Assembly: GCA_028706745.1 (NCBI GenBank)
Contig: JAQTVM010000001.1
Coordinates: 12,399 to 76,398, forward strand
DNA length: 64,000 nt
DNA from: Candidatus Nanoarchaeia archaeon
GTDB taxonomy: Archaea; Nanobdellota; Nanobdellia; SCGC-AAA011-G17; GW2011-AR17
Reading direction: 5' to 3'
Shown here piece by piece: positions 31,574-51,776 of this stretch. Each line of letters opens with the position of its first letter. Positions within the stretch are counted from its first letter, which is position 1. The notes below the pieces were generated by a model. It was not told where the DNA came from and searched no databases. It saw nothing but the letters and a program-made list of their open reading frames with translations. A program made the position numbers and the translations under genes.

Positions 31574-32041
31574 ATGAAATGCCCGTATTGCGGCTGCAAG
31601 GAAACAAAAGTCACTGACAGCAGGGAAAGCAACGAAGAGCCTGTCACCAGAAGAAGGAGGGAATGCCCTAAATGCAAAAAACGATTCACGACATACGAGC
31701 GCCTTGAAACATCAAATGTCATTGTCGTAAAAAAAGACGGCAGGAGAGAGCAGTTTGACAGGGAAAAGCTCAGGAGAGGCTTGTTAAGGGCGTGCGAAAA
31801 AAGGCCCATCTCATCAGACAAAATAGATTCAGTAATCAGCGATATGGAATCAGACATAACTTCCTCGGGAAAAACAGAGGTTGCAAGCAGATTGCTGGGT
31901 GAAAAAGTAATGTCTGCGCTGAAAAAGCTGGACAAGGTGGCATACATCAGGTTTGCTTCTGTCTACAGGGAATTCACAGACCTTGAAACATTCCAGGAAG
32001 AGCTAAAGACGCTTCTCAAGAAGCAGAGGGGGAAAAGATGA
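31574..32041 (+). CDS. nrdR: transcriptional repressor NrdR (Zn ribbon plus ATP-cone)
   Basis: CPYCGC...CPKC; near-identity to the bacterial NrdR signature (KVAYIRFASVYREF). Confidence 0.85.
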   Translation: MKCPYCGCKETKVTDSRESNEEPVTRRRRECPKCKKRFTTYERLETSNVIVVKKDGRREQFDREKLRRGLLRACEKRPISSDKIDSVISDMESDITSSGKTEVASRLLGEKVMSALKKLDKVAYIRFASVYREFTDLETFQEELKTLLKKQRGKR

Positions 32042-35000
32042 TAACCCGGATTAAAAAAAGAGACGGAAGCATTGTTTTTTTTAACAAGGCAAAGATAAGC
32101 GATGCAATATTCAAGGCGGCAAAGTCAGTAGGGGGAAAAGACAGAAGAAGGGCTGAACATCTTGCCTTAATGTCTGTTGAGCTTCTTGAGCAAAGGGGCT
32201 TTTGCGAAGAAAAGATGCCCAATGTCGAGGATGTGCAGGATGCTGTTGAAAAAACGCTCATAGAAGAGGGGCATGCGCAGACAGCAAAAGCATACATAAT
32301 CTACAGGGAGCAGCACAAGAGAATAAGGGAATTCCATTCCTATGTAAACTCAAACGAAATAATGGACGGCTACCTTAACCAGCTTGACTGGAGGGTAAAG
32401 GAAAACAGCAATATGAGCTTCTCGCTCCAGGGATTAAACAACCATATATCATCCATAGTAAGCTCAAACTACTGGCTTCACAAGATTTACCCGCCTGAAG
32501 TGAGGGAAGCGCACATTGAAGGAGACATACATCTTCACGATTTGCAGATACTCGGCTCCTATTGCTGCGGCTGGGACATAATGGACTTGATGATAAAAGG
32601 ATTTGGCGGAGTTCCTGAAAAAGTCGAGAGCATGCCTGCAAGGCACTACAGGGCAATGCTCGGGCAGATAACAAACTTTTTCTACACTCTTCAGGGGGAA
32701 ACAGCAGGTGCGCAGGCATTTTCAAATTTTAATACAATGCTGGCGCCTTTTGTGAAGTATGACCATCTTGAATACAAGGAAGTAAAGCAGGGAATGCAGG
32801 AATTCTTATTTAACATGAATGTGCCGACAAGAGTAGGTTTTCAATGCCTTTCAGCAGACACAGAAATACTTACGCCCACAGGATGGAAAGGATATGGAGA
32901 TATTAACAAAGGCGAGATCATAGAAACATTTAATCTAAGAACAGGAATAATCGAGCATCAAAAAGTTGCCTCTTTTTTTAGAAAGGAATATACGGGCAAG
33001 ATGTACCGCCTGCAAAATCGCATCCAGGACCAGCTTATTTCTCCAAATCACAGAGTTGTAAGAAAAAAATTTCAGACAGGAGAGAATGTTTTGGAGCCTA
33101 TCGAGGAAATTTTGAAGCTCAAGTCTCCTTTTATTATTCCAATTGCCGGAAAAAATAGCAAGCCGGAAGCAAAAATAGAAGACAAGCAGATAAAATTGAT
33201 GGCATGGATTATAAGCGAAGGCACTATTGAAAGGCCAACAAAGTACAGATGCTGTTACAGGGTGAGTATATACCAGTCAAAGATTAAAAATAAAACCAAT
33301 TACAAAGAAATAAAATCACTTTTGCACTATTTTAAACTTGAATTTTCAGAATATGAAGTCGCCTCTTTGGGAGAGAGCGTAACAAGAATGAGGCTGAACG
33401 CAGAAAGCTCAAAAAAAATACATAAATGGTTTGGAAGCAGGGAAAATATCCATTTTATTCCTGATTATTTATTGAATTTAAGCGAAAGGCAATCGCGCTT
33501 GTTTTTGGATACATACATTAAAGGCGAAGGCTTTGAAGGCTGCAAAATATCTGTTTCCGACATAGCCTTGCTAGACAGGCTGCAGATTATCATTGTCAAT
33601 TCAGGATTTGGCTCGAGCATATTAAAACGAAAGCCGACAATCGGCAAGAAAGATATTTTTGTATTAAGGATTATAAGACATAAAGATACGTATATTTCAA
33701 AAGTAAGCCAAGTAAATTACAAAGGAATTATATGGTGCCCGCATACCAAAAATGAGACAGTAATTGCCAGAAGAAGAGGAAAAGTGTTTATTACAGGCAA
33801 TACGCCTTTTACAAATTTAACTCTGGATATTGAAGTGCCTGAAAATCTGAGAAACAGCCACGCAATAATCGGCGGAAAGCCCATGCCCGAAGTGTACGGC
33901 GATTTCCAGAAAGAGGCTGACATGGTAAACAGGGCTTTCCTGGAAGTTATGTCAGAGGGGGATGCAAAAGGGAGGATATTCACATTCCCAATACCTACTT
34001 ATAACATAACAAAAAACATTGATTGGGAAAACCCTGCCCATGACACATTATTTGAAGTTACGTCAAAATTCGGGCTGCCTTATTTTGCAAACTTTGTAAA
34101 CTCAGAGATGAGCCCTGACGATGCAAGAAGCATGTGCTGCAGGCTTAGGCTTGACAACAGGGAATTAAGAAAAAGAAGCGGCGGATTATTTGCTTCAGCC
34201 CCATTGACAGGAAGCATAGGCGTTGTAACACTTAACATGCCTAGGATAGCGTTTGCAGCAAAAGATGAAACAAAATTTGCAGAGCGCGTGGTTGAGCTTA
34301 TGAGAATAGCAAAAACAAGCCTTGACATAAAAAGAAAGGCGGTTGAAAGATTCACGGAGCAGGGGCTTTATCCCTATGCAAAAAAATACCTCGGCGGGGT
34401 AAAACAGGCAACAGGGCAATATTGGGGAAATCATTTCAACACAATAGGGCTTATAGGAATGAACGAGGCGTGCCTTAATATTCTTGGAGAGAACATTGCT
34501 TCAAACAAGGGCAGGAATTTTGCGCTCAGGATTCTTGACGTAATGCGCGAAGAGCTAAGGCAATACCAGGAAAGCACAAACGACAATTATAACCTCGAAG
34601 CAACCCCTGGAGAAGGATGCAGCTACAGGTTTGCAAAGATGGACAGGGAAAGGTTTCCGCAAATAAAAACAGCAGGAGAGCAAGTGCCTTATTACACAAA
34701 CAGCACCCACCTCCCGGTAGGATATACAGACGACATATTTGAAGCGCTTGACCTGCAGGATGAACTTCAGTGCAAGTACACAGGCGGAACAGTGCTTCAC
34801 GGGTTTGTCGGAGAAAGAATATCAGACCCGGAAACATGCAAGAAACTCGTTAAAAAAATAGCCAGTAATTATAAGCTGCCTTACTTTACAATAACCCCGA
34901 CATTCAGCGTATGCCCTGAGCACGGTTATATTGCAGGCGAGCATTCACAATGCAAGAAAGAGACAGCAGAAGGGGCATGCGGAAAGCAGTGCGAAGTTTT

Positions 35001-35142
35001 TTCAAGGGTAGTCGGCTATTACAGACCTGTCCAAAGCTGGAATAATGGGAAAAGAGAGGAGTTCAGGCAGAGAAAAGCTTACTGCGAAAAGAAAAGCATT
35101 GAAAGCATGGAAAAAAAACAGGGATTCAGGTTTGCGATGTAA
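32038..35142 (+). CDS. nrdD: anaerobic ribonucleoside-triphosphate reductase NrdD, intein-containing
   Basis: ATP-cone at N-terminus. The GFQ/TPFTN active-site region is interrupted by a 319-aa insertion. C-terminal Zn ribbon and glycyl-radical motif RVVGYY are present. Extein about 715 aa. Confidence 0.85.
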   Translation: MITRIKKRDGSIVFFNKAKISDAIFKAAKSVGGKDRRRAEHLALMSVELLEQRGFCEEKMPNVEDVQDAVEKTLIEEGHAQTAKAYIIYREQHKRIREFHSYVNSNEIMDGYLNQLDWRVKENSNMSFSLQGLNNHISSIVSSNYWLHKIYPPEVREAHIEGDIHLHDLQILGSYCCGWDIMDLMIKGFGGVPEKVESMPARHYRAMLGQITNFFYTLQGETAGAQAFSNFNTMLAPFVKYDHLEYKEVKQGMQEFLFNMNVPTRVGFQCLSADTEILTPTGWKGYGDINKGEIIETFNLRTGIIEHQKVASFFRKEYTGKMYRLQNRIQDQLISPNHRVVRKKFQTGENVLEPIEEILKLKSPFIIPIAGKNSKPEAKIEDKQIKLMAWIISEGTIERPTKYRCCYRVSIYQSKIKNKTNYKEIKSLLHYFKLEFSEYEVASLGESVTRMRLNAESSKKIHKWFGSRENIHFIPDYLLNLSERQSRLFLDTYIKGEGFEGCKISVSDIALLDRLQIIIVNSGFGSSILKRKPTIGKKDIFVLRIIRHKDTYISKVSQVNYKGIIWCPHTKNETVIARRRGKVFITGNTPFTNLTLDIEVPENLRNSHAIIGGKPMPEVYGDFQKEADMVNRAFLEVMSEGDAKGRIFTFPIPTYNITKNIDWENPAHDTLFEVTSKFGLPYFANFVNSEMSPDDARSMCCRLRLDNRELRKRSGGLFASAPLTGSIGVVTLNMPRIAFAAKDETKFAERVVELMRIAKTSLDIKRKAVERFTEQGLYPYAKKYLGGVKQATGQYWGNHFNTIGLIGMNEACLNILGENIASNKGRNFALRILDVMREELRQYQESTNDNYNLEATPGEGCSYRFAKMDRERFPQIKTAGEQVPYYTNSTHLPVGYTDDIFEALDLQDELQCKYTGGTVLHGFVGERISDPETCKKLVKKIASNYKLPYFTITPTFSVCPEHGYIAGEHSQCKKETAEGACGKQCEVFSRVVGYYRPVQSWNNGKREEFRQRKAYCEKKSIESMEKKQGFRFAM
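32845..33801 (+). mobile_element. intein (Cys1 ... terminal Asn, +1 Thr) with degenerate LAGLIDADG-like homing-endonuclease region
   Basis: Starts CLSADTEIL (block A) right after GFQ and ends ...VFITGN followed by TPFTNLT; internal LMAWIISEGT and FLDTYIKGEGF blocks. Confidence 0.7.
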
Positions 35143-36519: not shown

Positions 36520-36945
36520 CTAAGCTATCTTTGCCTTGACAGGGTGCTTTGCGCCGCAGGCAGAGCAGTGCATGAAAAGCACATTGCCTTCCTTCTTCAG
36601 CTGGGTGTCAGGCCTGTTGCATTCTGTGCAAAGCACGAAATCCTTTGCAAACTGCTCTACCTTTGAATTAATCAGCATTGAAGTCAGCTTTCTTCCAAGA
36701 ATAAGCCTTGCTCCGTCAATCGCGGCAGGTGTTGCAAGCTCTCTCTGGAGGTATTTCAAAACCTGCGCCGGCTCTCTCCTGAATATGCTGCAGATGTCTA
36801 TGAAGTTTGCGATTATTGTCTTGTTGCCCTCAACATGCCCTCTTACCTTGGGTATCTCAAACCTTTCTGATTTAAGATGCACGTCAGGCAAAAGCTCCTT
36901 TGCCCTCTTGAGCAATGCGCGGTAATCAAAGATGTTTTCAGCCAT
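36520..36945 (-). CDS. eif2b: translation initiation factor 2 beta subunit
   Basis: KTIIANF...ELAT...C-TEC-...CSACGA zinc ribbon; 141 aa. Confidence 0.85.
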   Translation of the reverse strand: MAENIFDYRALLKRAKELLPDVHLKSERFEIPKVRGHVEGNKTIIANFIDICSIFRREPAQVLKYLQRELATPAAIDGARLILGRKLTSMLINSKVEQFAKDFVLCTECNRPDTQLKKEGNVLFMHCSACGAKHPVKAKIA

Positions 36946-36968
36946 AAATAAGACGAAAATAAGGTGAT

Positions 36969-36992
36969 TTATAATACTTTGCCTTAAAGCGC
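36969..36992. repeat. 24-bp direct repeat TTATAATACTTTGCCTTAAAGCGC (copy 1)
   Basis: Identical to 38480..38503. Contains a TATA-like TTTATAATA/TTTAAGG on the minus strand about 25 bp upstream of the aIF2-beta ATG, and overlaps the HEPN stop codon. Confidence 0.9.
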
Positions 36993-37454
36993 ATTTAGCT
37001 TCATTAGTATCTCCTCTTTGAGCTTATTGAAATAAAGCCTGAATTGCAGCTCAATTTTTTTCCAATCATCAAAGTTGACAGGTGTACCATAATAATGGAT
37101 TCCATTCCTTTTGGTCCTCACTATTTCAAAGAAATCCCAATCAAAATCCAATTCAGGATGTATTTCACATAAATAAGCAAAAAGGCACTGGTGGTTATCA
37201 ATTTTAATCCTGTCAAAACGCAGAAAAGATTCAGCCATTTCATGCAGTGCATCATAATAAAGCTTGTATACGCTGTTCCATTCGATGCTGTCTTTAGGAA
37301 TATCTGCAATAAGGCGGTTGGCTGAACTTATGTCGCCTTCTGCAATATCCAATGTTGACTTTATCTTATGAATATCAACGAACTCAACAGCTAAGAATTT
37401 GCCTTCCTTTTTGCATCTGCAAAATGCATCTTTTAGCACAAGATATTCAGGCAT
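36984..37454 (-). CDS. HEPN domain protein (toxin-antitoxin component)
   Basis: R-x4-6-H motif RTKRNGIHY; 8-nt overlap with the upstream MNT gene. Confidence 0.6.
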   Translation of the reverse strand: MPEYLVLKDAFCRCKKEGKFLAVEFVDIHKIKSTLDIAEGDISSANRLIADIPKDSIEWNSVYKLYYDALHEMAESFLRFDRIKIDNHQCLFAYLCEIHPELDFDWDFFEIVRTKRNGIHYYGTPVNFDDWKKIELQFRLYFNKLKEEILMKLNAL

Positions 37455-38073
37455 TTATACTAGCCCTCACAAAATTCATGTCTCCTTTGATAAGATTGCC
37501 TTTTATTATGTTGCTTAATAGCCCTTCGCCAAATTTTTTAAGCTCGCCCTTGTCCTTGCAATTAAATATTTCAATATCCCTGTGAAGCTTTTGCTCAAAA
37601 CCGGCCATTTTCAGCCCGGAATAATCGCCATAAATAAAAATGTCAATATCACTCTTCTCATACCAGTCCGAGCGGGAAAAGCTGCCAAAAAGCACTACTG
37701 TGTCTGCCGCAGGCAAAGAAGCGAGATGGTTCAAAAGCCCTGAATTGTAAAGCTCGTTTAGCGCAAACAGCTTTTTTCTGTTCTTGTATGCCGCTGACTC
37801 GTAATTACCTATATAAAAAGGCATTTTTCCATTTTCCTTTGCCTTCTTTATAATGCCTTGCTTCAAAAATACCTTAAGCCAGCCCGCAGCCTTGCTTCTG
37901 GTAATTTTTGCCTGCTTGAGTATCTCCTCAAAATGCCATTCCCTTGTAGGATTATTGAAAAAGAGCCCAAGCACATTGTCTTCCTTGCTTTTCATAATAG
38001 TTTCTATAATGGGAACTAATTTATAAGCTTTGCTCTTGATGTCCATAAACCACAGTAAAAAGAGATTGTTCAT
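37447..38073 (-). CDS. wHTH plus minimal nucleotidyltransferase (MNT) protein
   Basis: GSFSRSD...DIDIFIY (GS-x9-13-DxD NTase motif); N-terminal winged helix. Confidence 0.65.
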   Translation of the reverse strand: MNNLFLLWFMDIKSKAYKLVPIIETIMKSKEDNVLGLFFNNPTREWHFEEILKQAKITRSKAAGWLKVFLKQGIIKKAKENGKMPFYIGNYESAAYKNRKKLFALNELYNSGLLNHLASLPAADTVVLFGSFSRSDWYEKSDIDIFIYGDYSGLKMAGFEQKLHRDIEIFNCKDKGELKKFGEGLLSNIIKGNLIKGDMNFVRASINA

Positions 38074-38091
38074 AAACTCTTCGGCTCAAAT

Positions 38092-38228
38092 TCCGCAATA
38101 TTTCCGGCAAACCTTGGAAAACCAAAGGAGGCAGCAGGAAAAATAGAGCCAAAATCACGCAAAAACCAATAAATTTCCAACATCTCCGAAAGGGTATTTT
38201 TACCTCTCGTCGTCAAAGCTGGCTTTGC
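38092..38228. repeat. ~140-bp noncoding element, copy 1 (about 70-75% identical to 46470..46620)
   Basis: Shared blocks ATTCCGCA..ATTTCCGGCAA.CCTTGGAAAACC, CCGAAAG and CTCGTCAAAGCTGGCT. Confidence 0.7.
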
Positions 38229-38456
38229 TTATTCATGCTCTTTTGGAACGCGAATGCGCAATGGCTTGTATGGCGGCTGTGATAATTCAAGCCCGGGCAA
38301 GCAATAATTATTCCTGCCCGTGGGGTCTTCCTTAACTGCCTTTCTCCAATATTTTACCGCCTTTCTGAATATTTCTTTTTTTTCTTTATCATCATTAAAC
38401 CCTAAAAGAATATCTTTCGCAAATTCTATCTCATATTCCAAGCTTTTGCCAGCCAT
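38229..38456 (-). CDS. hypothetical small protein
   Basis: ORF 38229..38477 uses a TTG start; first ATG gives MAGKSLEY...; no family recognised. Confidence 0.25.
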   Translation of the reverse strand: MAGKSLEYEIEFAKDILLGFNDDKEKKEIFRKAVKYWRKAVKEDPTGRNNYCLPGLELSQPPYKPLRIRVPKEHE

Positions 38457-38479
38457 AACAATCAAAATATCATTCAAAA

Positions 38480-38503
38480 TTATAATACTTTGCCTTAAAG
38501 CGC
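38480..38503. repeat. 24-bp direct repeat TTATAATACTTTGCCTTAAAGCGC (copy 2)
   Basis: Perfect copy; immediately upstream (minus-strand sense) of the small ORF ending at 38477. Confidence 0.9.
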
Positions 38504-39127
38504 CTGCACAAATCCGGCCTTCGGCTTGAAAACTTCCCCGTCCTTAATCAACTCATCAAGAATCCTCTCAACCATCTTTGCAGGCATTGCCGCTTTTGCA
38601 ATAAGCTCTTCAACATTAACCATTCCGTCATAAGAAGAAATCAGGGAAACAACCCTTCCTCTCGCCTCCATCGAAGGCTCAACAGGCTCTTCAATCACTT
38701 CCTCGCTTACCTTGAAGTGCTCAGCTTCCTGTTTTCCATAGACAGCATCAAGATATTGCCTTCTTGCAAATGCCCATTCAGCAGACATTTTTCTGACAAT
38801 TTCAGGGCGCACGAATATCTCGCCGTTTGACTCGTGAAGCATTCCAACAACAAGAGCCATATCGCCAATTGAAAGAGATGACATAAGTAAAGTGTCCTCG
38901 TCCCACGCCTTTACCCTTATCTGCCCTGAGCCGTCATCAAGAGTAAAGGCATTATACCTCTTGTCAGAATTTTCATAAGAATCAACAACAGCCGCAATCA
39001 AATTAACCCTTCTAACCTGCTTTCCGCCAACATTAAACACCTTGAATCCTGATTCATTAAGCAAAGGAGAAGCAGAAGCCAAATCCTTTATCCAGAAAAT
39101 GTAAGCAGTATTCCTCTTAATGTCCAT
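38495..39127 (-). CDS. OB-fold plus C-terminal winged-helix protein, RPA32/Stn1-like
   Basis: VRRVNLIAAVVD...TLDDGSGQIRVKAW...GDMALVVGML OB pattern; C-terminal wH; directly downstream of mcm. Confidence 0.45.
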   Translation of the reverse strand: MDIKRNTAYIFWIKDLASASPLLNESGFKVFNVGGKQVRRVNLIAAVVDSYENSDKRYNAFTLDDGSGQIRVKAWDEDTLLMSSLSIGDMALVVGMLHESNGEIFVRPEIVRKMSAEWAFARRQYLDAVYGKQEAEHFKVSEEVIEEPVEPSMEARGRVVSLISSYDGMVNVEELIAKAAMPAKMVERILDELIKDGEVFKPKAGFVQAL

Positions 39128-39144: not shown

Positions 39145-41145
39145 CTACTTCATCAGTTCTATAATGCGGGGCTTGGGTTTATAGATATAGCCGTCTCTTA
39201 CTAGCTTATCAATTGCATCCTCTGCCTTAAACCTTGAAACACCTAGTTTTTCAGCCTCATCCAACACTTTCTCAATTTCCATTGATTTCTGCTCTTTGCT
39301 CATATTATAAATTAGCTCCCTGATTCCAACCACCTTTGCCCTTTCAGAAGTGGGCATTCCGCTGATTCTGTCAATGTCAATCTGCCCTGTTTCAGGGTCC
39401 TGGCCTACTTCCATAAGGCAGTATCTCTGCAGGTCAATCGCCCTTCTTGCATCCTCGACAGTTATCTTGTCAGAGAGCCTTACTTTCGCAGAAGCTTCTG
39501 CAAGCCTTACAATCCCGTCCAAATGTCTCGGAGTTATGGGAATTGGCTTTATTGCATCACCCACTGTGCCTGTATTTCTAAGCTTTACATAGAAGTTTTT
39601 AATTTCATCCCTTGCCTCGTCTGAAAGCATCGGGCGAAGCTGCTTTGCAAATGCAATGTATTTTCTCAATAGTTTTGCATCAATGTCAGGGTCAGCTCCG
39701 CTCATTATCTGGTTAAGCAAAACCTTGTTTGCAATATTTGTGTCTTTTTCTTTTTCAGGCAAATCCCTCATTACAAAAATCAGGTCAAACCTGCTAATCA
39801 AAGCAGGAGGCAGGTCAATCTGCTGCCCTATTATGCCGTAAGGGTCAAACCTTCCCAGCTTCGGGTTTGCGGCTGCAAGAACAGTTGTCTGCGCCCTTAA
39901 AGTTGCCTGAACATTTGCCTTTGCAATGCTGATTTGCTGCTGCTCAAGCGCCTCGTGCAAGGCGGCCGTGTCCTCATGCGACATCTTGTCAAGCTCGTCA
40001 ATGCAAAGCAGGCCCTTGTCAGCAAGAACCATTGCCCCTGCTTCCAAAGCCCATCCTCTCAAGAATTCATCCTTGACTACTGTGGCAGTTAGCCCTGCTC
40101 CTGAAGCGCCCTTTCCCGCTACAAACCTTGACTTAGGGGCAACTTTTGATATGAATATAATCATCTGCGACTTTGCAACCCCGGGGTCTCCGACAAGAAG
40201 TATGTGCATGTCACCCCTGATGAAAGTGCCGTCTTTCTTCTGCTTCCTTACTCCTCCAAACATCTGCAAAGCCAAAGCAAGCTTTACCATGTCATAACCG
40301 TAGATGCTCGGCGCAACAGAGGCGATGAGCTTTTGGTAAATATTTTTTTCTTTTGCAAGCTTCCTTATCTCTGTTTCCTCTTCCTTTGAGATGATTATTT
40401 CTGAAAAATCCTCCTGCAGAGGGTCAATATGATTTGCATCCATGGCAAGGTCAAACCTTGTCATTATTCCCCCCAGCTTGTGGGGTATTGGAACTTCGCG
40501 GATTATGCCTGAAACGCAAACACCGCATCCGGGAGTTGTCCTTCTTTCCATTCTTGGCTCAACAAGGTCTTCCCTTAGGAATACTGAAAGCCTTTTTGGC
40601 TGCGCATTTCCCTCCAATGTCTGCGGCGACTCTTCCAAAACAAGCCTCTGCGCATCAGTAAGCTCTTTTGAAAGAAGCCTGAATTGCCCTTTTCTTCCGC
40701 ATGAGCATCTTGACGGCTCCTTGAACTTTGAGTCAGTCTGCAGCATGGTGATTACATTGCCGCACGACGGGCATTCAAACCTTGCCGAAACAACCTCAGG
40801 TCTGACATCAGACGACTGCCTTATGATTCCTGTAATGGAAATCAGCCTTCCCAAATGCTCAGCCCTTACATTTCTTATGAAAGCCTGCTGGCTCTCTGGC
40901 AGGTTCTTGAACCTTATTCTCAGCTTAAAGCCCATTACCTTTGCAGCTTCCTCCATTGCCTTGAGCGTATTGTCAGGGTCATCCAGCAATTGTTCGGCTG
41001 CCTCTGACTTGAACTTTGCAAGCTTGAAGAAATCAACAGATATTGCCTTCTGCCCCCTTGCGGCAGCTTCCTGAAGCTCTATTATGTAATCTGATTCAAG
41101 AAAATCCTGAAAAAGTTCCACAAGGTCCCTTAGTTCTATTGGCAT
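39145..41145 (-). CDS. mcm: MCM replicative helicase
   Basis: Zn finger C-x2-C...C-x-C; Walker A GDPGVAKSQ; Walker B CIDELDKM; arginine finger SRFDL. Confidence 0.9.
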   Translation of the reverse strand: MPIELRDLVELFQDFLESDYIIELQEAAARGQKAISVDFFKLAKFKSEAAEQLLDDPDNTLKAMEEAAKVMGFKLRIRFKNLPESQQAFIRNVRAEHLGRLISITGIIRQSSDVRPEVVSARFECPSCGNVITMLQTDSKFKEPSRCSCGRKGQFRLLSKELTDAQRLVLEESPQTLEGNAQPKRLSVFLREDLVEPRMERRTTPGCGVCVSGIIREVPIPHKLGGIMTRFDLAMDANHIDPLQEDFSEIIISKEEETEIRKLAKEKNIYQKLIASVAPSIYGYDMVKLALALQMFGGVRKQKKDGTFIRGDMHILLVGDPGVAKSQMIIFISKVAPKSRFVAGKGASGAGLTATVVKDEFLRGWALEAGAMVLADKGLLCIDELDKMSHEDTAALHEALEQQQISIAKANVQATLRAQTTVLAAANPKLGRFDPYGIIGQQIDLPPALISRFDLIFVMRDLPEKEKDTNIANKVLLNQIMSGADPDIDAKLLRKYIAFAKQLRPMLSDEARDEIKNFYVKLRNTGTVGDAIKPIPITPRHLDGIVRLAEASAKVRLSDKITVEDARRAIDLQRYCLMEVGQDPETGQIDIDRISGMPTSERAKVVGIRELIYNMSKEQKSMEIEKVLDEAEKLGVSRFKAEDAIDKLVRDGYIYKPKPRIIELMK

Positions 41146-44993: not shown

Positions 44994-45323
44994 TTACTGT
45001 CTTAAGCCGGCCAGCTTTGAAACAAGCTCATTGAAAACAACCTGCTTTTTTTCTTTTGGCAAAGAAAACAATATTTTCTGAACCATTGCCTCTGATATTG
45101 TAAAGATGTAATTAAGCTTGATTATGCTGTCTTTTACAGCGCCTTCTTTCCTTGAAAGCGCAATCCCTTCCATTGAAGTGTTGGATGTTATCCCTGCAAC
45201 AGCCACATTGCCGTGCTCCTCAAATAATACAAGAGCAGGCCGCTTTTTAACTTCAAAAGTGTCCGCAAATTGGACAGAGGCAAGCACCACATCTCCCGCC
45301 TTAAGCATTCTCCCACACCTCAT
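44994..45323 (-). CDS. MazF/PemK-family toxin
   Basis: GDVVLASVQF...KKRPALVL...VAGITSN pattern of the CcdB/MazF fold. Confidence 0.55.
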   Translation of the reverse strand: MRCGRMLKAGDVVLASVQFADTFEVKKRPALVLFEEHGNVAVAGITSNTSMEGIALSRKEGAVKDSIIKLNYIFTISEAMVQKILFSLPKEKKQVVFNELVSKLAGLRQ

Positions 45324-45522
45324 CTTCCTTGTTGTCCCAAAGCTCTTTCATCTTTTGCTGTTGTATCTTGTGCAGGAATTCATCGTATTGGTTTCTTTTC
45401 TTTACGCTATGGAATACCTTTATCATATGCTCAATCAGCTCGGCATAAGTCTGCCTTGGATATTCCTTCAGCTCCTGCATTGCCTTAACAAGCGCCTTGT
45501 CTATCTGTATTGTCGTGTTCAT
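45301..45522 (-). CDS. ribbon-helix-helix antitoxin (partner of MazF-like toxin)
   Basis: Internal Met start MNTTIQIDKALVKAMQEL; 23-nt overlap with the toxin gene. Confidence 0.45.
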   Translation of the reverse strand: MNTTIQIDKALVKAMQELKEYPRQTYAELIEHMIKVFHSVKKRNQYDEFLHKIQQQKMKELWDNKEDEVWENA

Positions 45523-45600
45523 TATATATTCACTATAGTTGGCATATAATCTATTATATATAAGCCTTGCGGATGTTTTGGTTTTGACTATATTTTCCAT

Positions 45601-46434
45601 TCAGGCGCACCCCTCTTTCCTTAAGCCGTCATAAGGGCTTTTAACCGAAATAAAGGCAGAAGGGCACATGTGCACATAAACCATTGTTGTTTCCGCACTG
45701 CTGTGCCCCATCAGGGGCTGGACAGCTGAAACACTGTATCCATTTTCAATCAAATGAGTTGCAAAAGAATGCCTTAATGAATGCGGATGAACCTTCTTCT
45801 TAATGCCTGCCTTTCTTGCAGCATCCCTTACAGTCTCCTGCACGCTCCTCGGATGAAGCGGAAAGCCATTTCTTCCTGCAAACAGCCAATCCTCTCCTGC
45901 ATCACAAACAGCCTTTTTCAGCCTTTCACGCAGGCACTCTGCTATAATAAAAGGCCTGTCCTTGTTTCCCTTTCCGTGCCTTACCCATCCAATGCATCTC
46001 TCAAATTCAAAATCAATAGTTCTTAGGTTAAGAGCCTCGCTTACCCTTAATCCTGCAGAATACAACAACTCAAGAATAAGCCTGTGCTTTTCATTATCAA
46101 CAGCAGAAAAAAGTCGAAGCACCTCATCTTTTGTAAGGAATACAGGCAGCGTTTTCGGCACCTTTGAATACTTAATCCGCCAAGTGACTCTTTTGTGCAA
46201 AACCTCTTCCATCAGGAACTTCAGCGCATTCACGTGCACGTTCAGCGTATTGCCGCACTTATTCTCCGCAACAAGCACGTCGATATAATCCCTAACATCC
46301 TTTGACGTAACGCGCATGAATTCCTTAGGGCAAAAGCGCATGAACTGCCTGACACACTGTATATAAGTAAGGATTGTCTTTCGGCTTAGCCCTCTTCTAA
46401 GCATCTCTTTTTGCATGTTGTAGATAGCGTCCAT
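45601..46434 (-). CDS. tyrosine recombinase, XerC/XerD/XerA-like, without IntI-specific insertion
   Basis: C-terminal HPHSLRHSFATHLIENGYSVSAVQPLMGHSSAETTMVYVHM (R..HxxR...Y). Only ~55 aa lie between the KGNKDR and LRHSF boxes, versus ~100 aa in IntI. Start taken at MDAIYNM (46434). Transcribed away from the cassette array. Confidence 0.8.
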   Translation of the reverse strand: MDAIYNMQKEMLRRGLSRKTILTYIQCVRQFMRFCPKEFMRVTSKDVRDYIDVLVAENKCGNTLNVHVNALKFLMEEVLHKRVTWRIKYSKVPKTLPVFLTKDEVLRLFSAVDNEKHRLILELLYSAGLRVSEALNLRTIDFEFERCIGWVRHGKGNKDRPFIIAECLRERLKKAVCDAGEDWLFAGRNGFPLHPRSVQETVRDAARKAGIKKKVHPHSLRHSFATHLIENGYSVSAVQPLMGHSSAETTMVYVHMCPSAFISVKSPYDGLRKEGCA

Positions 46435-46469
46435 ATAAAGGAGGCAAGAAGCTCGTCCCTTAAAAAATC

Positions 46470-46620
46470 TTCGCACAAAATTCCGCAGGATTTCCGGCAA
46501 CCCTTGGAAAACCCACCAAGCCAGTCGAAAATTATATGCAAAAATAGGCAAAAGACACAAAAATTTACAACATCGCCGAAAGCACTTTTTGAGAACCCTC
46601 GTCAAAGCTGGCTAACTAAA
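46470..46620. repeat. ~140-bp noncoding element, copy 2, in the attI-like region between recombinase and first cassette
   Basis: see copy 1 at 38092..38228. Confidence 0.7.
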
Positions 46621-46705
46621 ACGTGACGACAAAAAATCAAACAATGGCTCTACCAAAAGCCGCCTGAAACCCGCAAAAAGAATGAATTCCTGTGTCTTCT
46701 CGCAT

Positions 46706-46736
46706 ATAGACTGTTAGGCAACATTTGGGTTTGGGC
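46706..46736. repeat. attI-like junction: unique left half (CATATAGACT) plus conserved right half GTTAGGCAACATTT plus left inverted repeat of cassette 1
   Basis: GTTAGGCAACATTTGGG is identical to the start of cassette 4; the left side is unrelated to the attC-like left half. Confidence 0.55.
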
Positions 46737-46748
46737 TAAAAACACTTC

Positions 46749-46979
46749 TTAGAATTTTGCATATAATGGTTCTTTGGGAATTTTTATCATGTAACTATGT
46801 TTACCAACAATTATAATTCCTTCTTCTAAGCCCCATTCAAATAAGTCTTGAGGATTAAACTCAGGAGGAACTCCACCCCTATAAGGTCTAGCCATTAAAC
46901 CTTCTATTCCCTTTCTTAATGCGATAGGCTCAAAAATATGTCCGTCTATTTCTGAAAAAAATTTGTATATATCAAACAT
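46749..46979 (-). CDS. cassette 1 ORF, hypothetical 76 aa
   Basis: Bracketed by the inverted repeats TTTGGGTTTGGGC (46724-46736) and GCCCAAACCCAAA (47038-47050). Confidence 0.35.
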   Translation of the reverse strand: MFDIYKFFSEIDGHIFEPIALRKGIEGLMARPYRGGVPPEFNPQDLFEWGLEEGIIIVGKHSYMIKIPKEPLYAKF

Positions 46980-47037
46980 TTTTTACTCCTATTCATTGTT
47001 AATATTATACCCCTATATAAGTATTATGGTTTTAAAC

Positions 47038-47162
47038 GCCCAAACCCAAACGCTGCGCCCCTGCGGGGGCTTGCCCGACCAGCTCTGGAGCTTGCTGTGA
47101 GGCTCACTTCGCTCGCACTCCAGCTGCGCTCCGAGGGTCGGGTCGCCTAACAGTCGTTAGGC
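47038..47162. repeat. attC-like site 1: cassette IR plus GC-rich module plus palindromic core GCCTAACAGTCGTTAGGC (47145-47162)
   Basis: about 70% GC in a <40% GC genome; conserved blocks AAACGCTGCGCCCCTGCGGGGGCTTGCCCG ... CGAGGGTCGGGTCGCCTAACAGTCGTTAGGCA. Confidence 0.7.
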
Positions 47163-47233
47163 ACAATTTGAGTTGGGACTTCCCCACCGACAAAAGCAAT
47201 ACATTTATATATTTCTAGCAATTTACAAAGGAT

Positions 47234-47566
47234 ATGGTTAGAAAAATATTAAGAAAAACAATAGAAGATTTACCTGTTTGGAAAATAAAATATGGATTAA
47301 CAAGAGGCGATCTAATTCTTATTCATGAATTAGCATTAATCACATTTAAACCTAATGTATTAAATAACTATTTTAAACAAGAGATGGGTGGGGTTCTTGG
47401 TCGTAATCAAGATTGCTCCATTATTTACTTTGCTCGCAATCTCCTTTTAGAAAAGGGTTTGCCACATGCTTTTGTCGGAATGAAATCTGATATGGATGGA
47501 GAAGATTATAAGTTAATACCTGTATCAGATATAGAATCTTACGAAACTCTTAAATTAAAACCTTAA
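47234..47566 (+). CDS. cassette 2 ORF, hypothetical 110 aa
   Basis: Bracketed by TTTGAGTTGGGAC (47167-47179) and GTCCCAACTCAAA (47579-47591). Confidence 0.35.
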   Translation: MVRKILRKTIEDLPVWKIKYGLTRGDLILIHELALITFKPNVLNNYFKQEMGGVLGRNQDCSIIYFARNLLLEKGLPHAFVGMKSDMDGEDYKLIPVSDIESYETLKLKP

Positions 47567-47578
47567 TTGTATATATTC

Positions 47579-47714
47579 GTCCCAACTCAAACTTCTCCGC
47601 TCCTCGCCTGCGGGCTGCGGTGCTCGACCTGCGCAGCTCTGGGCTCGTCAGGAGTGCTCGCTGTCGCTCGCCTCGACTTCGCCCGAGGCGCAGGGTGCCT
47701 AACAGTCGTTAGGC
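47579..47714. repeat. attC-like site 2 (divergent GC-rich module plus core 47697-47714)
   Basis: Same terminal GCCTAACAGTCGTTAGGCAACATT; the GC-rich body is more diverged than at sites 1, 3 and 4. Confidence 0.65.
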
Positions 47715-47766
47715 AACATTTTCCAAAAAGTCCGAAAACACAAAAAGGGAAAGGAAAAAGAATTAT

Positions 47767-48075
47767 CTAAATTCTAGCAGCAACCAAGGGATTATAATAA
47801 TAATCAAACACTAACATAACTGGGGATTTGTTATATATTTTCACTAATTGCCAACCACACTCTTGTTTAGAGGTATGTTTATATTGTTCAAGTACCTTAC
47901 TAAGAGTTCTAATATTTATATCATTTCCAAAAGTTATAGTAGCATGACAAGAAGTTTCATCAGAAGTATAATTATATTCCTTCTCCAATCTCAAAGCTTT
48001 ATTTAATGCTTTACGGATCTTTTGTTCAAGATTTTGATTTGGTGTTGTCTTATCTACTCTTAATTTTATATCCAT
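47767..48075 (-). CDS. cassette 3 ORF, hypothetical 102 aa
   Basis: Bracketed by ATTTTCCAAAAAGTCCG (47718-47734) and CGGACTTTTGGAAAAC (48193-48208). Confidence 0.35.
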   Translation of the reverse strand: MDIKLRVDKTTPNQNLEQKIRKALNKALRLEKEYNYTSDETSCHATITFGNDINIRTLSKVLEQYKHTSKQECGWQLVKIYNKSPVMLVFDYYYNPLVAARI

Positions 48076-48192
48076 TTTTACCCCCTACAATGTTGTTATT
48101 TAAGAGATATGACAAATATATAAGCCTTTCGGTGAGAGGTTATTTATTCCTTTCCCTCATTAACCTATCATTAAAGGGCTTCGCCCCGTTAG

Positions 48193-48313
48193 CGGACTTT
48201 TGGAAAACGCTGCGCCCTGCGGGGCTTGCCCGCTCATCCTCGAACTCGCCATGATGGCTCGCTCCGCTCGCCTCGGCTCGTTCGGGGAGCGGGTCGCCTA
48301 ACAGTCGTTAGGC
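48193..48313. repeat. attC-like site 3 (GC-rich module plus core 48296-48313)
   Basis: see site 1. Confidence 0.7.
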
Positions 48314-48332
48314 AACATTTGGGAACCGAAAC

Positions 48333-48560
48333 TCAGTCCCTTAAAGGCAATTTTCCACATATTTCATCAAAGTGTGTAACCTTGATATCATATAGAGAAT
48401 AAGTAGAATATTTTGTACCAAAGTTATCATTTATTGCATTTATTGCCAATGTGTAGGCTACTACTTTATCTTCATTAGGTTTTCCAAATCCATTTAATTC
48501 ATGTAATACCATATGTTGTAGCGATTTTACGACTTTGTCTAAAGAAGTTTGTTCTGTCAT
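48333..48560 (-). CDS. cassette 4 ORF, hypothetical 75 aa
   Basis: Bracketed by TTTGGGAACCGAAA (48318-48331) and TTTCGGTTCCCAAAC (48608-48622). Confidence 0.35.
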   Translation of the reverse strand: MTEQTSLDKVVKSLQHMVLHELNGFGKPNEDKVVAYTLAINAINDNFGTKYSTYSLYDIKVTHFDEICGKLPLRD

Positions 48561-48607
48561 TATAATACCACCTCAATAGGAAAGAATTATCTTTCAGTTT
48601 TTATAGC

Positions 48608-48754
48608 TTTCGGTTCCCAAACGCTGCGCCCCTGCGGGGGCTTGCCCGCCCAGCTCTGGGGCTTGCCCGCCCAGCTCTGGGGCTTGCCAGGATGGCTCGC
48701 TACCGCTCGCCTCGGCTGCGCCCCGAGGGTCGGGTCGCCTAACAGTCGTTAGGC
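48608..48754. repeat. attC-like site 4 (GC-rich module with internal 21-bp tandem duplication plus core 48737-48754)
   Basis: CTTGCCCGCCCAGCTCTGGGG occurs twice inside the module. Confidence 0.7.
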
Positions 48755-48810
48755 AAAATTACAGGCGGCTCATAAGACTAATAACAAGAAAAGAACAAAC
48801 GGCGGGCGGC

Positions 48811-49281
48811 TTATTGGCTGTTTTTCCATTTTTCCCACAAATGTGCAGCGTCTCTTACATTCAGGCTTTCAAATAGATAATTATACATATTTATTGCGGT
48901 TTGCCTGGCAGGGCGCTCTTCGTAAATCAGCCCAAAGCCATGTTCCTGTTCTGCTATGTCATATACGTCAAGAGTCTGGTTGCATCCTGTATCTATAAAC
49001 CTTTCATAAAAGAATCCGCCGGGCTGTGGCTTTTTGCTAATAAGGTTTTCACAGCCCCCATAAACAACTACTGTAAATGTAGGGCTATTATAGCTTTCGC
49101 GGTGCTCAAAGGTATATTCGCCACATTCTACCCTAAAGCCCTCTTCCATAAAGGCAACATTTGCTTCATTGCATATATTGCCTATTGTATCTATTGTCGT
49201 TTCTCTATTATTTACACCTGTTGTTGCGCATCCTGCTCCAAGTGCAAGTGCTGCTAATCCACCAAATATTGCTTTTTTCAT
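48811..49281 (-). CDS. putative secreted lipoprotein (cassette 5)
   Basis: Signal peptide with LGAGC lipobox-like Cys; paralogous to the next gene; locally elevated GC. Confidence 0.4.
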   Translation of the reverse strand: MKKAIFGGLAALALGAGCATTGVNNRETTIDTIGNICNEANVAFMEEGFRVECGEYTFEHRESYNSPTFTVVVYGGCENLISKKPQPGGFFYERFIDTGCNQTLDVYDIAEQEHGFGLIYEERPARQTAINMYNYLFESLNVRDAAHLWEKWKNSQ

Positions 49282-49335
49282 TTTGATTTACCTCCCTCAA
49301 TATATCTTATACAGCAATAATCTACTGCGGGCGGC

Positions 49336-49878
49336 TTATAATTTTTCTTTTGCCTGATGCCATTCCGCAATAAGTCGCTCAACATCAAATGTACTTGTGA
49401 TTGTCTGCATATATGAATCATATGCACTATTGCGGAATGCCTGCGCTTGCTCTTCCGCCCCGGGTTCCTCTAAATCAAAGGAGCACCGCAGCCCGCAGGT
49501 GAAGAGCGGAGAAAGAGGACCAGCAGGTCCATGCTCAAATGTCCTGTCGCAACCTTCGTCTGAAAAATATTGATGATTTATCTGTGCATCTGACTGAAAC
49601 ACGTCCAATGTTATTCTTACGCATCCTGTACTCTCCGCATATTCCTGCCTTCTCCATACTGTTTCTGATTCCAAATTGCCGTTATTTACAACTCTTACCG
49701 CAAGTTCTAATTGTTCTTCATTCCAATAAATATCGCCAGAAATAACTTCTGCCCCATTTTGCGTCAGGACATTACTACTTTGACCGTACAAAGGCAGATC
49801 CCTTGCGCAATCTAATCCGGCTGCTGCTAAAGTCGCCAATCCGGCAACCGCGACTGATGATATTATTCTTGCTTTCAT
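49336..49878 (-). CDS. putative secreted lipoprotein paralog (cassette 5)
   Basis: Signal peptide AAAGLDC; similar C-terminal region (..AEWHQAKEK vs ..HLWEKWKN); flanking sequence duplicated (ACAGCAATAATC..). Confidence 0.4.
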   Translation of the reverse strand: MKARIISSVAVAGLATLAAAGLDCARDLPLYGQSSNVLTQNGAEVISGDIYWNEEQLELAVRVVNNGNLESETVWRRQEYAESTGCVRITLDVFQSDAQINHQYFSDEGCDRTFEHGPAGPLSPLFTCGLRCSFDLEEPGAEEQAQAFRNSAYDSYMQTITSTFDVERLIAEWHQAKEKL

Positions 49879-50079
49879 TTTGATTTACCCCCTAAACATA
49901 CTTTCTACAGCAATAATCCACTCCTTCCTTATAAGCCTTACGGAGAACGCCGCCCGCCAACGACGAATATGCCGCCTGTAACTCACCAGATGTCGCTCGC
50001 TGCGGCTCGCTACATCGGTGCCGCGCAGCAGCAGGCTCGCCGTGAAGCTATATTCAACTGTCCGATATATTCGGACAAT

Positions 50080-50595
50080 TCAGCTAAAAATAATATCTTT
50101 CGTCGCATCAATTAATTCTTTACAAATATTTTTTAATTTACTTATCTTCGCCTCATTCTCAACAGAAATCTGCACGCCGTATGTATAGTCCTCCCTCATG
50201 CCAATAATGCTGTCCATATCTTCATATTCCAATAATTCAATAAACTTATCATCCAGGCTGATCTTTTTCTCTTCTTTCAAATATCTCATTAAAGCAATTG
50301 TGCATGTCTGGTTTCCGGATTCAAACCCGAATTTTGCCGCAATAGCCAAAAAGCAATGATAAATGCAATAAAACCCGGCTGACATTGACCAGTCTGAAAA
50401 TCCGTCTCTTTTAAAAACAGTTATCCCATCCAGGTCATGCTCTGCCTTTGCAAGATGCTTTTTTGCTTCCTCAATATCCGGCTTGCCTTTCAATAATCCC
50501 CTGTGCTTTAGCCTTTTCCCTAACTTTTTGCATTCTTCAATCTCTTTTTTTGCCTTGTTCAGGCACCATTCAATTTGGTTAAAAGCGTGCGGCAT
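50080..50595 (-). CDS. HEPN-like domain protein (partner of downstream MNT), cassette 5
   Basis: N-terminal helix pattern AKKHLAKAEHDL typical of HEPN; 17-nt overlap with the MNT gene; HEPN Rx4-6H motif not clearly identified. Confidence 0.35.
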   Translation of the reverse strand: MPHAFNQIEWCLNKAKKEIEECKKLGKRLKHRGLLKGKPDIEEAKKHLAKAEHDLDGITVFKRDGFSDWSMSAGFYCIYHCFLAIAAKFGFESGNQTCTIALMRYLKEEKKISLDDKFIELLEYEDMDSIIGMREDYTYGVQISVENEAKISKLKNICKELIDATKDIIFS

Positions 50596-51169
50596 CTTTC
50601 ATTATCTCCACATATTTATCCTGCCCATATAATACAATAGCATTTTTGACTATATCAATAATGGCTTTGTTTCTCTTTTTAAGGTTTTCCAGCAAATCTT
50701 GCTGTGTCACCATAATAGCATGAAGCTTTTTAGGCAGCATCTCTTCTTTTTTGTTAATGAATTTATTTATTTCTTTAATATCATTTTTATTCATCACAAC
50801 CATAATATCAATATCGCTTGCCTGAACATAGTTCTTAATGGCAGAGCCGTAAATCATTACAATCCTGCCTTCCTTAAAAACTTCCTTAAATTCCTCTTTC
50901 CATCTTTTGAAGCTATTGGCTTCATCAGCAAGCAAGAAAGCTATAAGCTGGCTGACATAAGCCTCCTCAAAATTCAGCCTGTAATTTATTGATTTGCCTA
51001 TTTGCCTGCTTATTACTAAATTTTCCTTAAACAGCCTTTTGAACAGCTTTTGGGCGCCAACATGGCTTATATCCAGTATCTTGCTTATGGAGTTGGCATT
51101 ATAAAATGCAGTGAACTCCTTGAATAAAACAAGCAAGCATTCCCTTTCAGTTAACGTTAAAGACACCAT
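50579..51169 (-). CDS. wHTH plus minimal nucleotidyltransferase protein (cassette 5)
   Basis: IYGSAIKNYVQASDIDIMVV NTase motif; N-terminal wHTH; same architecture as 37447..38073. Confidence 0.6.
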   Translation of the reverse strand: MVSLTLTERECLLVLFKEFTAFYNANSISKILDISHVGAQKLFKRLFKENLVISRQIGKSINYRLNFEEAYVSQLIAFLLADEANSFKRWKEEFKEVFKEGRIVMIYGSAIKNYVQASDIDIMVVMNKNDIKEINKFINKKEEMLPKKLHAIMVTQQDLLENLKKRNKAIIDIVKNAIVLYGQDKYVEIMKDAARF

Positions 51170-51312
51170 ATTAACTCCAAGTTACTATATAGAAACTATG
51201 AATTACTATATAAACCTTTCTATCCCTAATGACGAAAAACCCCACCTCCTTTATTTTTCGGACAAATAGAGCCTGCGGCGGAGAGATATATCGCCCACCA
51301 AGCCTTATGTCT

Positions 51313-51330
51313 TCCTAACAGTCGTTAGGC
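51313..51330. repeat. core site 5 (TCCTAAC-AGTC-GTTAGGC) without GC-rich module
   Basis: seen directly; followed by GAAATTACAGGCGGCTCACAAGACTAATAACAA, near-identical to the start of cassette 5 (48755-48790). Confidence 0.7.
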
Positions 51331-51395
51331 AGAAATTACAGGCGGCTCACAAGACTAATAACAACTATTAAATATCTGCAAAGCATAATCCTAAT

Positions 51396-51776
51396 ATGAA
51401 AAGAAAGGTTGGGCTCTTTGTTTACTGGACTCCAAGAATATTATCCATAATCTTCTTATTGTTCCTTGCATTAATGTCCCTTGACATCTTTGACGGCAAT
51501 TACGGATTTTGGGGCACAATACTGGGCTTGTTCATGCATAACATACCTGCATTTATCCTGCTTATAATCCTGTTAATCTCCTGGAATCACGAGATTGTGG
51601 GAGGAATCGGCTTTATCCTTGCAGGGATTGCATATGCCTCACTTATCATATCTCATCTGATTAAAACCGGATTTGAATGGTATTATCTGGCGTGGATATT
51701 GCAAATCTCAGGGGTTGCATTTCTTATAGGAATCCTTTTTCTTATTGGCTGGTTCAAGAAAAATAAGAAAAAATAA
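51396..51776 (+). CDS. membrane protein (4 TM), function unknown
   Basis: 126 aa, hydrophobic helices; after the last core site. Confidence 0.35.
   Translation: MKRKVGLFVYWTPRILSIIFLLFLALMSLDIFDGNYGFWGTILGLFMHNIPAFILLIILLISWNHEIVGGIGFILAGIAYASLIISHLIKTGFEWYYLAWILQISGVAFLIGILFLIGWFKKNKKK

Follow-up and report, generated by a model that had tools for sequence, protein, structure and literature searches.

This report concerns a short gene cassette of a Candidatus Nanoarchaeia archaeon, located in a stretch of 64 kb of contig JAQTVM010000001.1 (assembly GCA_028706745.1), which we call the window and whose own numbering is used throughout. The cassette lies between an OB-fold gene of the replication machinery and the gene of the essential translation factor aIF2-beta, is bounded by two direct copies of a 24-mer, and encodes a small protein, an MNT-type nucleotidyltransferase (MNT in the following) and a HEPN-fold protein. 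An original prediction, made from the nucleotide sequence without database searches, had described it as a toxin-antitoxin cassette inserted into the aIF2-beta promoter. Homologous loci used for comparison are designated by L and a number.

Anatomy of the repeat-bounded cassette

All cassette genes and the flanking genes are located on the minus strand. We refer to the junction on the side of the small open reading frame (ORF) as J1 and to the junction on the HEPN side as J2. BRE stands for transcription factor B recognition element and dN/dS for the ratio of non-synonymous to synonymous divergence. Read along the minus strand, the locus is arranged as follows:

39145-41145, minus: MCM gene
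38495-39127, minus: OB-fold (RPA2-like) gene downstream of MCM, flanking target; homologues carry PF08784; 3' end within the repeat
38480-38503, minus: repeat copy 2 (J1); GCGCTTTAA, with which the OB-fold gene ends (two final codons plus stop), then GGCAAAGTATTATAA (predicted BRE/TATA)
38457-38479, minus: leader of 23 nt from the TATA to the small-ORF ATG, taken as part of the cassette because it is homologous in L032, L023 and L024
38229-38456, minus: small ORF, 75 amino acids (aa), intact in four lineages, dN/dS 0.16-0.35
38074-38228, minus: conserved non-coding element of ~155 nt, directly upstream of MNT
37447-38073, minus: MNT-type nucleotidyltransferase, 208 aa, motif GSx10DxD, Pfam Polbeta/NTP_transf_2
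36984-37454, minus: HEPN-fold protein, 156 aa, assigned by AlphaFold2 and Foldseek; PADLOC PDC-M05B
36969-36992, minus: repeat copy 1 (J2); supplies the HEPN tail and stop, and the predicted BRE/TATA now preceding aIF2-beta
36946-36968, minus: native aIF2-beta leader, 23 nt, orthologous to the leader in empty sites
36520-36945, minus: aIF2-beta, flanking target gene, Pfam eIF-5_eIF-2B at 2.5e-33

The cassette, found in this Nanoarchaeia (DPANN) lineage, is thus composed of the 23-nt leader, the small ORF, the 155-nt element, MNT and HEPN. The 24-mer TTATAATACTTTGCCTTAAAGCGC occurs exactly twice, at 36969-36992 and 38480-38503, with a copy spacing of 1511 bp; no further match with three or fewer mismatches was found in the 64 kb, and none in 100 dinucleotide shuffles. 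The perfect repeats that the original prediction had placed around HEPN, MNT, the element and the small ORF are therefore exact. On the minus strand the 24-mer reads GCGCTTTAA-GGCAAAGTATTATAA, a 9-nt gene tail followed by the predicted BRE/TATA. Copy 1 holds the last two codons and the stop codon of HEPN (GCG CTT TAA). In copy 2 these 9 nt end the OB-fold gene, again as two final codons plus stop codon, a feature absent from the original prediction. Both copies are followed by exactly 23 nt and then by ATGGCTG, the start of aIF2-beta (36945) and of the small ORF (38456), respectively; the leader of the small ORF begins TTTTGAATG. Both junctions recur in independent assemblies from four sequencing runs (L001-L005), which rules out an assembly artefact. 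One assembly (SRR22315508) breaks at the boundary between element and MNT (end of L004 at 3506 and start of L001; ~38068-38096 in the window) with a contig overlap of ~28 nt, and this break could reflect strain heterogeneity at that boundary in the population.

TATA-like hexamers are most frequent between -33 and -28 relative to the ATG in 45 genes of the window, and for aIF2-beta as well as for the small ORF the TTATAA within the repeat has its first base at -29. The BRE/TATA-like sequence recognized in the original prediction is hence located at a position typical of this genome. As a predicted promoter element, its placement suits leaderless transcripts of the small ORF and of aIF2-beta, and the first cassette gene would be positioned to use whichever promoter copy sits at J1.

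The MNT and HEPN ORFs overlap by 8 nt (37447-37454) with MNT first, and the same pairing is present in all homologous loci examined. The GSx10DxD motif can be read in the MNT translation as GSFSRSDWYEKSDID. MNT matches PADLOC PDC-M05A at 6e-14 and MntA weakly; it carries an N-terminal extension of ~100 aa, for which the winged helix-turn-helix label was not confirmed. The HEPN ORF gave no match in Pfam. Searching its AlphaFold2 model (predicted local distance difference test, pLDDT, of 94) with Foldseek returned 2hsb at the top (probability 1.0, template modelling score 0.77), then 6m6u, 5yep and 7ae8, all of them HEPN and HepT structures. Both components of the PADLOC candidate system PDC-M05, A (MNT) and B (HEPN), are matched by the pair, and the earlier assignment of an MNT/HEPN pair is upheld by Pfam, Foldseek and PADLOC. 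MNT/HEPN is accordingly a predicted type VII-like (MntA/HepT, PDC-M05) toxin-antitoxin or defence module, and such a module may favour retention of the cassette. At the Rx4-6H RNase motif the window HEPN reads R113-x6-H120 (RTKRNGIH). In the family consensus residue 120 is Asn, and R113, N117, G118, Y121 and Y122 are invariant in the family. The small ORF has no match in Pfam, NCBIfam or PADLOC and its AlphaFold2 model is poor (pLDDT 52). All three cassette genes are under purifying selection (dN/dS 0.09-0.35), none of them encodes a recombinase, and neither a transposase nor terminal inverted repeats were found in the cassette.

In three unrelated genomic contexts (L028 6254-7363, L030 6254-7363, L031 1319-2428) an IS630-like DDE_3 transposase gene is followed, at a distance of 262 nt, by a truncated HEPN copy of 120 aa, and this fragment seems to be a passenger or a target of the insertion sequence. 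L029 falls into the same cluster, and there MNT and HEPN at the OB/aIF2-beta locus are each broken by insertions.

Empty and occupied sites in related genomes

In four relatives the OB gene is directly followed by aIF2-beta:

L025, empty: OB protein 83% identical to that of the window; GCGATT TAA GGCAAAGTATTATAA, 23 nt, ATG; 23/24 of the window repeat
L027, empty: OB protein 63% identical; same core, 21/24 of the window repeat
L026, empty: OB protein 69% identical; different promoter variant
L007, empty: OB protein 59% identical; different promoter variant

With a single repeat copy directly upstream of aIF2-beta, L025 and L027 represent the empty site that the original prediction had asked for, and this bears out the view of the original prediction that the window holds a discrete inserted cassette. 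The same insertion point is occupied in five other lineages. These differ in the additional genes they carry, their repeats are shorter or have diverged, and in one case a deletion scar is left. The gene order in L032 is that of the window, and its repeat is perfect over 18 nt only (TAAGGCAAAGTATTATAA). L024 carries the small ORF, the element, MNT and HEPN up to the end of the contig inside HEPN; its own OB tail and promoter read GTGCTGTGAGTAAAGCTTATAT. In L006, L009 and L029 array-type cassettes and an attI-like region replace the small ORF and are followed by the element, MNT and HEPN. In L008 array-type cassettes adjoin the OB gene and the contig ends before any MNT-HEPN. The scar is located in L023, the closest relative of the window, where nt 1-58 of the element are fused to the last ~95 nt of HEPN (2988-3140). 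The fusion took place at a GATG(nn)TGGAAA microhomology, by which MNT and most of HEPN were lost while the small ORF remained intact. Identity between the flanking repeats is 24/24 in the window, 18/18 in L032, 14/15 in L029 and 15/15 in L023.

Two unrelated inserts, each with a single ORF in reverse orientation, are located exactly after the HEPN stop (TAAG|), one in L006 (8437-8858, 83 aa) and one in L023 (3134-3578, 104 aa). They are flanked by TCTAAG/TCTGAG and TTAAG/CTAAG, respectively. Cassettes of several types seem to insert recurrently at this hot spot, the junction of stop codon and promoter.

Distribution and divergence of the cassette do not follow those of the hosts. By nucleotide identity of MCM the window, L023, L025 and L026 form one clade (85-88%) in which occupied and empty sites are mixed, and the occupied L024 is sister to the empty L007. 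MNT is 92-93.5% identical in nucleotide sequence among L032, L024 and L006, as compared to 75-82% for the MCM of their hosts. Synonymous divergence (dS) between these three lineages is 0.20-0.29 for MNT and HEPN (MNT 0.20-0.27) versus ~1.0 for MCM and aIF2-beta. The opposite is seen for the small ORFs of the sister genomes window and L023, with a dS of 0.93, above the host values of 0.44-0.67. That the cassette genes are far more alike than their hosts argues for horizontal, site-specific movement of the cassette. In L032, moreover, aIF2-beta is 88-91% identical to that of the window clade and 79% to that of L006; since it is of the window-clade type, the sequence switches from cassette-type to host-type at the core. 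Judged from these sequence comparisons, the cassette passes horizontally between hosts, and there is one precise site where it lands or is replaced. According to the original prediction, diverged repeats around the same arrangement in relatives would speak for an ancient duplication and against a recent insertion. Such repeats do occur, in L032, L023, L029 and L006; the divergence of the genes, on the other hand, shows horizontal mobility and not one ancient duplication.

An unrelated difference between these genomes concerns the NrdD-like ORF for anaerobic ribonucleotide reductase (window 32038-35142), which has 1034 aa versus 715 aa in L007 and L025. The extra ~319 aa start with CLSADTEIL and end with ...VFITGN, followed by T. 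The extra segment looks like an intein that is absent from L007 and L025.

Nature of the repeat and competing explanations

The two junctions of L032 allow local and cassette-borne copies of the repeat to be told apart. J1 consists of GCGCTTTAA and the core, with the local OB tail (AL-stop), and J2 of GCTATATAA and the core (AI-stop). Of the 9 positions, 3 are not shared by GCTATATAA and the local OB tail, GCGCTTTAA, and HEPN tails of the GCTATATAA type are found on the same cassette type in L006 and L029. The HEPN-side copy in L032 is therefore the tail of the cassette and not the local OB tail, so that at least part of the repeat travels with the cassette. The original prediction that the insertion had duplicated the promoter of aIF2-beta, i.e. 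a target-site duplication with two local copies, does not agree with this finding. The HEPN family itself has a conserved C-terminus, ...KEEIKKK(L/I), followed by 0-3 variable residues, and none of 118 other homologues ends in AL or AI. The HEPN proteins of the window (AL-stop) and of L006 (AI-stop) end in this way, and both ends mimic tails of OB genes. A single core is present at the empty sites L025 and L027 and direct core repeats flank the insert. This pattern fits a putative att-like core rather than a pure target-site duplication. All five occupied lineages in which the junction is seen, and two empty ones, have the identical promoter half GGCAAAGTATTATAA before aIF2-beta. Since the last 15 nt are an invariant promoter in every locus with this promoter type and the other 9 nt are coding, identity over 24/24 positions is no evidence of the recent insertion implied in the original prediction.

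We consider it fairly probable that the unit of 1,511 bp represents an MNT/HEPN cassette that is non-autonomous, moves horizontally and integrates site-specifically, with the junction between OB stop and aIF2-beta promoter as its core. The attachment core would be TAAGGCAAAGTATTATAA, which links the stop codon of the RPA2-like OB gene with the BRE/TATA of aIF2-beta and reaches 24 nt in the genome of the window, and the cassette would bring its own copy of the core at the end of the HEPN gene. By a crossover within the shared core, possibly from a circular intermediate and at a position still within that core, the cassette would be inserted and one core copy left on either side. The OB-fold gene would retain its stop codon and the HEPN ORF would end in the core. 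One promoter copy would then drive the small ORF, placed 23 nt from the TATA as for aIF2-beta, and the second would keep the essential aIF2-beta expressed. A tyrosine recombinase acting in trans or host recombination over short homology may supply the enzyme.

Several observations weigh against this explanation. The crossover points look variable, the HEPN tail being equal to the local OB tail in the window and L023, and equal or nearly so in L029, but not in L032 and L006. Tails that vary in this way agree better with homology-driven exchange or with gene conversion than with a site-specific crossover at a fixed point. At J1 the promoter of L024 and L023 is of a different variant, and either repeat copy may be the one borne by the cassette. 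The core shows no convincing inverted-repeat architecture, and the cassette encodes no recombinase. The cassette was not seen in a circular or excised form, and scans of viral contigs gave chance matches only. The 24-mer with its flanks scores 12-14 against the consensus of the array sites described below, as compared to a mean of 12.3 and a 95th percentile of 16 for random windows. The motif histidine of HEPN is replaced by Asn in most of >400 homologues, and RNase activity and toxicity are therefore uncertain. Finally, the comparison comprises about eight independent lineages, all of them metagenomic.

A transposition-like insertion, in which staggered cuts 24 nt apart are filled in and both repeat copies are local, would account for the perfect repeat of the window, for HEPN tails matching the local OB tail (window, L023, nearly so L029) and for the J1 promoter of L024, which resembles the native type of its relatives L007 and L026. 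It is very improbable in view of the J2 copy of L032, which departs from the local tail and matches the cassette tail found elsewhere, and of L023, where the promoter parts of J1 and J3 differ strongly. The cassette also lacks the transposase and terminal inverted repeats of such an element, and we know of no transposase family that makes 24-bp duplications. One ancient insertion followed by vertical inheritance, several precise losses via the repeats and gene conversion keeping the copies identical would explain the identical insertion point in all occupied lineages, the diverged or shortened repeats of L032, L023, L029 and L006 and the decay in place in L023, and precise loss via a direct repeat of 15-24 bp is easy. 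We nevertheless regard this as unlikely, because divergence of cassette and host conflicts in both directions (lower than the host for MNT, higher for the small ORF) and because at least four independent precise losses would be needed, with horizontal replacement in addition anyway.

The remaining alternative involves a recombinase encoded about 7 kb from the cassette, together with a second copy of the 155-nt element:

45601-46434, minus: XerA-like tyrosine recombinase, 277 aa, the only recombinase candidate in the window
46464-46620, minus: 155-nt element, second copy (~74% identity), located upstream of the XerA-like gene

Over its full length the protein can be aligned with archaeal XerA, its best NCBIfam match is recomb_XerA_Arch, and the recombinase that occupies the corresponding place in L027 shares 87% identity with it; the original prediction was right in calling it Xer-like. 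Classification as an integron integrase was rejected, as query positions 177-197 correspond to 182-246 of IntI4 and ~45 aa of the additional domain are missing. The gene opens an integron-like, XerA-based locus (window 45601-51400) with an attI-like junction at ~46712 after the recombinase gene. The array contains six direct sites, GGTCGCCTAA-CAGTCG-TTAGGCAACAT (11-6-11, dif-like), which separate small cassettes, five of them beyond the attI-like junction (47146, 47698, 48297, 48738, 51314). Each array cassette is bounded by its own 13-nt inverted repeat (e.g. TTTGGGTTTGGGC...GCCCAAACCCAAA), and each site is preceded by ~100 nt of GC-rich sequence. A PemK/MazF-like toxin (44994-45323) and its small upstream partner (45301-45600, DUF7557) follow immediately downstream of the XerA-like gene. 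The last large array cassette consists of a second HEPN (Pfam HEPN, 50080-50595) and a nucleotidyltransferase (50579-51169); this pair (50080-51169) was rejected as a close paralogue, since its HEPN is not close to that of the cassette.

The 155-nt element precedes either MNT or the XerA-like gene. Besides the two window copies it is found in L006 (7195-7350), L029 (5100-5256), L024 (3578-3731), L032 (285-438) and, partially, L027 (1-96). It contains T-tracts and the conserved blocks AGCCRGCTTTGACGACGG and TTTTCARGGGTTGCCGKAAA, and its mean column identity of 82% is above that of several neighbouring proteins. It is absent upstream of the distant MNT/HEPN pairs of L012-L022 and therefore specific to this lineage. 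A scan of 36-52 kb against Rfam at E<=1 gave no credible family for the element or the repeat. RNAalifold on six copies yielded -10 kcal/mol without covariation support, and an RNA motif was dropped in favour of a control region at the DNA level. The element may be a control region shared by both loci, and we infer from it that the XerA-like enzyme may be linked to the cassette.

If the insertion point were a secondary site of this array, the XerA-like enzyme would insert cassettes at the TTA of the OB stop (on the opposite strand), similar to integron attG or to IMEX (integrative mobile elements exploiting Xer) at dif. In line with this, MNT-HEPN is joined via the element to an attI-like region and array cassettes at this very locus in L006, L009 and L029, the OB gene of L008 is followed by array-type cassettes, and in L023 and L006 the stop codon is the exact position of the extra reverse-ORF cassettes, of which that of L023 starts with TTAGGGCAAGC like array cassettes do (TTAGGCA). 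The presence of the element upstream of the XerA-like gene as well, complete in the window and partial in L027, points in the same direction. Yet the background-level score of the 24-mer stands against such a site, and no GC-rich array-type or attC-like site is present at either end of the window cassette. An identity of 15-24 nt on the promoter side of the crossover is not explained by the mechanism alone, and we hold this explanation to be doubtful. L025 lacks both array and recombinase next to the isoleucyl-tRNA synthetase (IleRS) gene, and as an empty site it is uninformative here. Nothing speaks for an action of the Xer-like enzyme on the 24-mer itself, which the original prediction had brought up, as the similarity of the 24-mer region to the array sites is no better than that of random windows. 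Likenesses seen by eye (TAAGGCA/TTAGGCA, GCCTTAA/GCCTAAC) were not used as evidence, given that the alignment is at background level. A viral or plasmid carrier was likewise considered and rejected: the 18-nt core had 8 matches in IMG/VR, all in unrelated phage contexts, and neither the HEPN family nor the array site had any.

Returning to the site-specific mobile cassette, a wider interpretation can be put forward tentatively, although we think it rather unlikely. DPANN Nanoarchaeia would possess a Xer-based analogue of integrons, in which a XerA-like enzyme builds 11-6-11 arrays and also mobilises integrase-less "promoter-trap" cassettes in trans, among them the MNT/HEPN unit, which shares the 155-nt control region and would insert before aIF2-beta by mimicry of stop codon plus promoter; imprecise loss of the cassette would then silence aIF2-beta. 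Independently of this wider interpretation, the site-specific mobile cassette that we consider fairly probable would, if it holds, have a new kind of attachment site, made up of an archaeal promoter and the stop codon of a neighbour. Integration would be neutral for both essential neighbours and place the cassette genes under a strong housekeeping promoter. The case further links a widespread MNT/HEPN (PDC-M05-like) module to a Xer-type cassette array without the hallmark of integron integrases. The locus offers natural empty, occupied and decayed alleles for the study of gene flow in DPANN archaea, which is little understood and in organisms that are not yet genetically tractable, and the junction represents a short, defined natural landing site.

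Comparison with known systems

The MNT/HEPN pair resembles type VII HepT/MntA systems in that the MNT gene comes first and overlaps HEPN, in its GSx10DxD motif, and in HepT toxins being the nearest solved relatives of its HEPN. It differs by the additional N-terminal MNT domain of ~100 aa, a HEPN without Pfam match and the family histidine that is mostly Asn, and is known from sequence and predicted structure.

As a mobile unit the cassette shares with integron cassettes, clusters of attC sites lacking integrases (CALINs) and archaeal integrons (Ghaly et al. 2022, PMC9668308) that it is small, promoter-dependent and integrase-less, such cassettes often encoding toxin-antitoxin pairs. Variable cassette content at one locus is also common to both, and in L006 and L029 the pair adjoins an attI-like region and an array. 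In contrast to integrons the recombinase lacks the additional domain of IntI, the ends of the window cassette carry no attC-type site, the flanking repeat comprises 24 nt as compared to the 7-nt integron core, and the array sites are 11-6-11 dif-like palindromes. IMEX and pdif (plasmid-borne dif) modules are likewise non-autonomous, often encode toxin-antitoxin pairs and are bounded by short recombination sites, and here a XerA-like gene and a dif-like array lie 7 kb away. By analogy, it is conceivable that the cassette depends on a chromosomal Xer-type enzyme. Unlike in those modules, the 24-mer is not dif-like and insertion occurs at a promoter and not at dif.

Elements of the lambda/pNOB8 type are directed to the 3' end of a gene, in most cases one for a tRNA, and their attP contains a copy that replaces it. 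Compared to these the cassette has no integrase, is only 1.5 kb in length, has a core made up of stop codon and BRE/TATA instead of a tRNA gene, and seems to have a variable crossover. The likeness lies in the architecture: the insert lies between direct repeats of an att core, a single core is present where the site is empty, and the site is reused across hosts. As in those elements, the copy brought along would restore the interrupted function, in this case the stop codon of the upstream gene and the promoter of the essential gene downstream.

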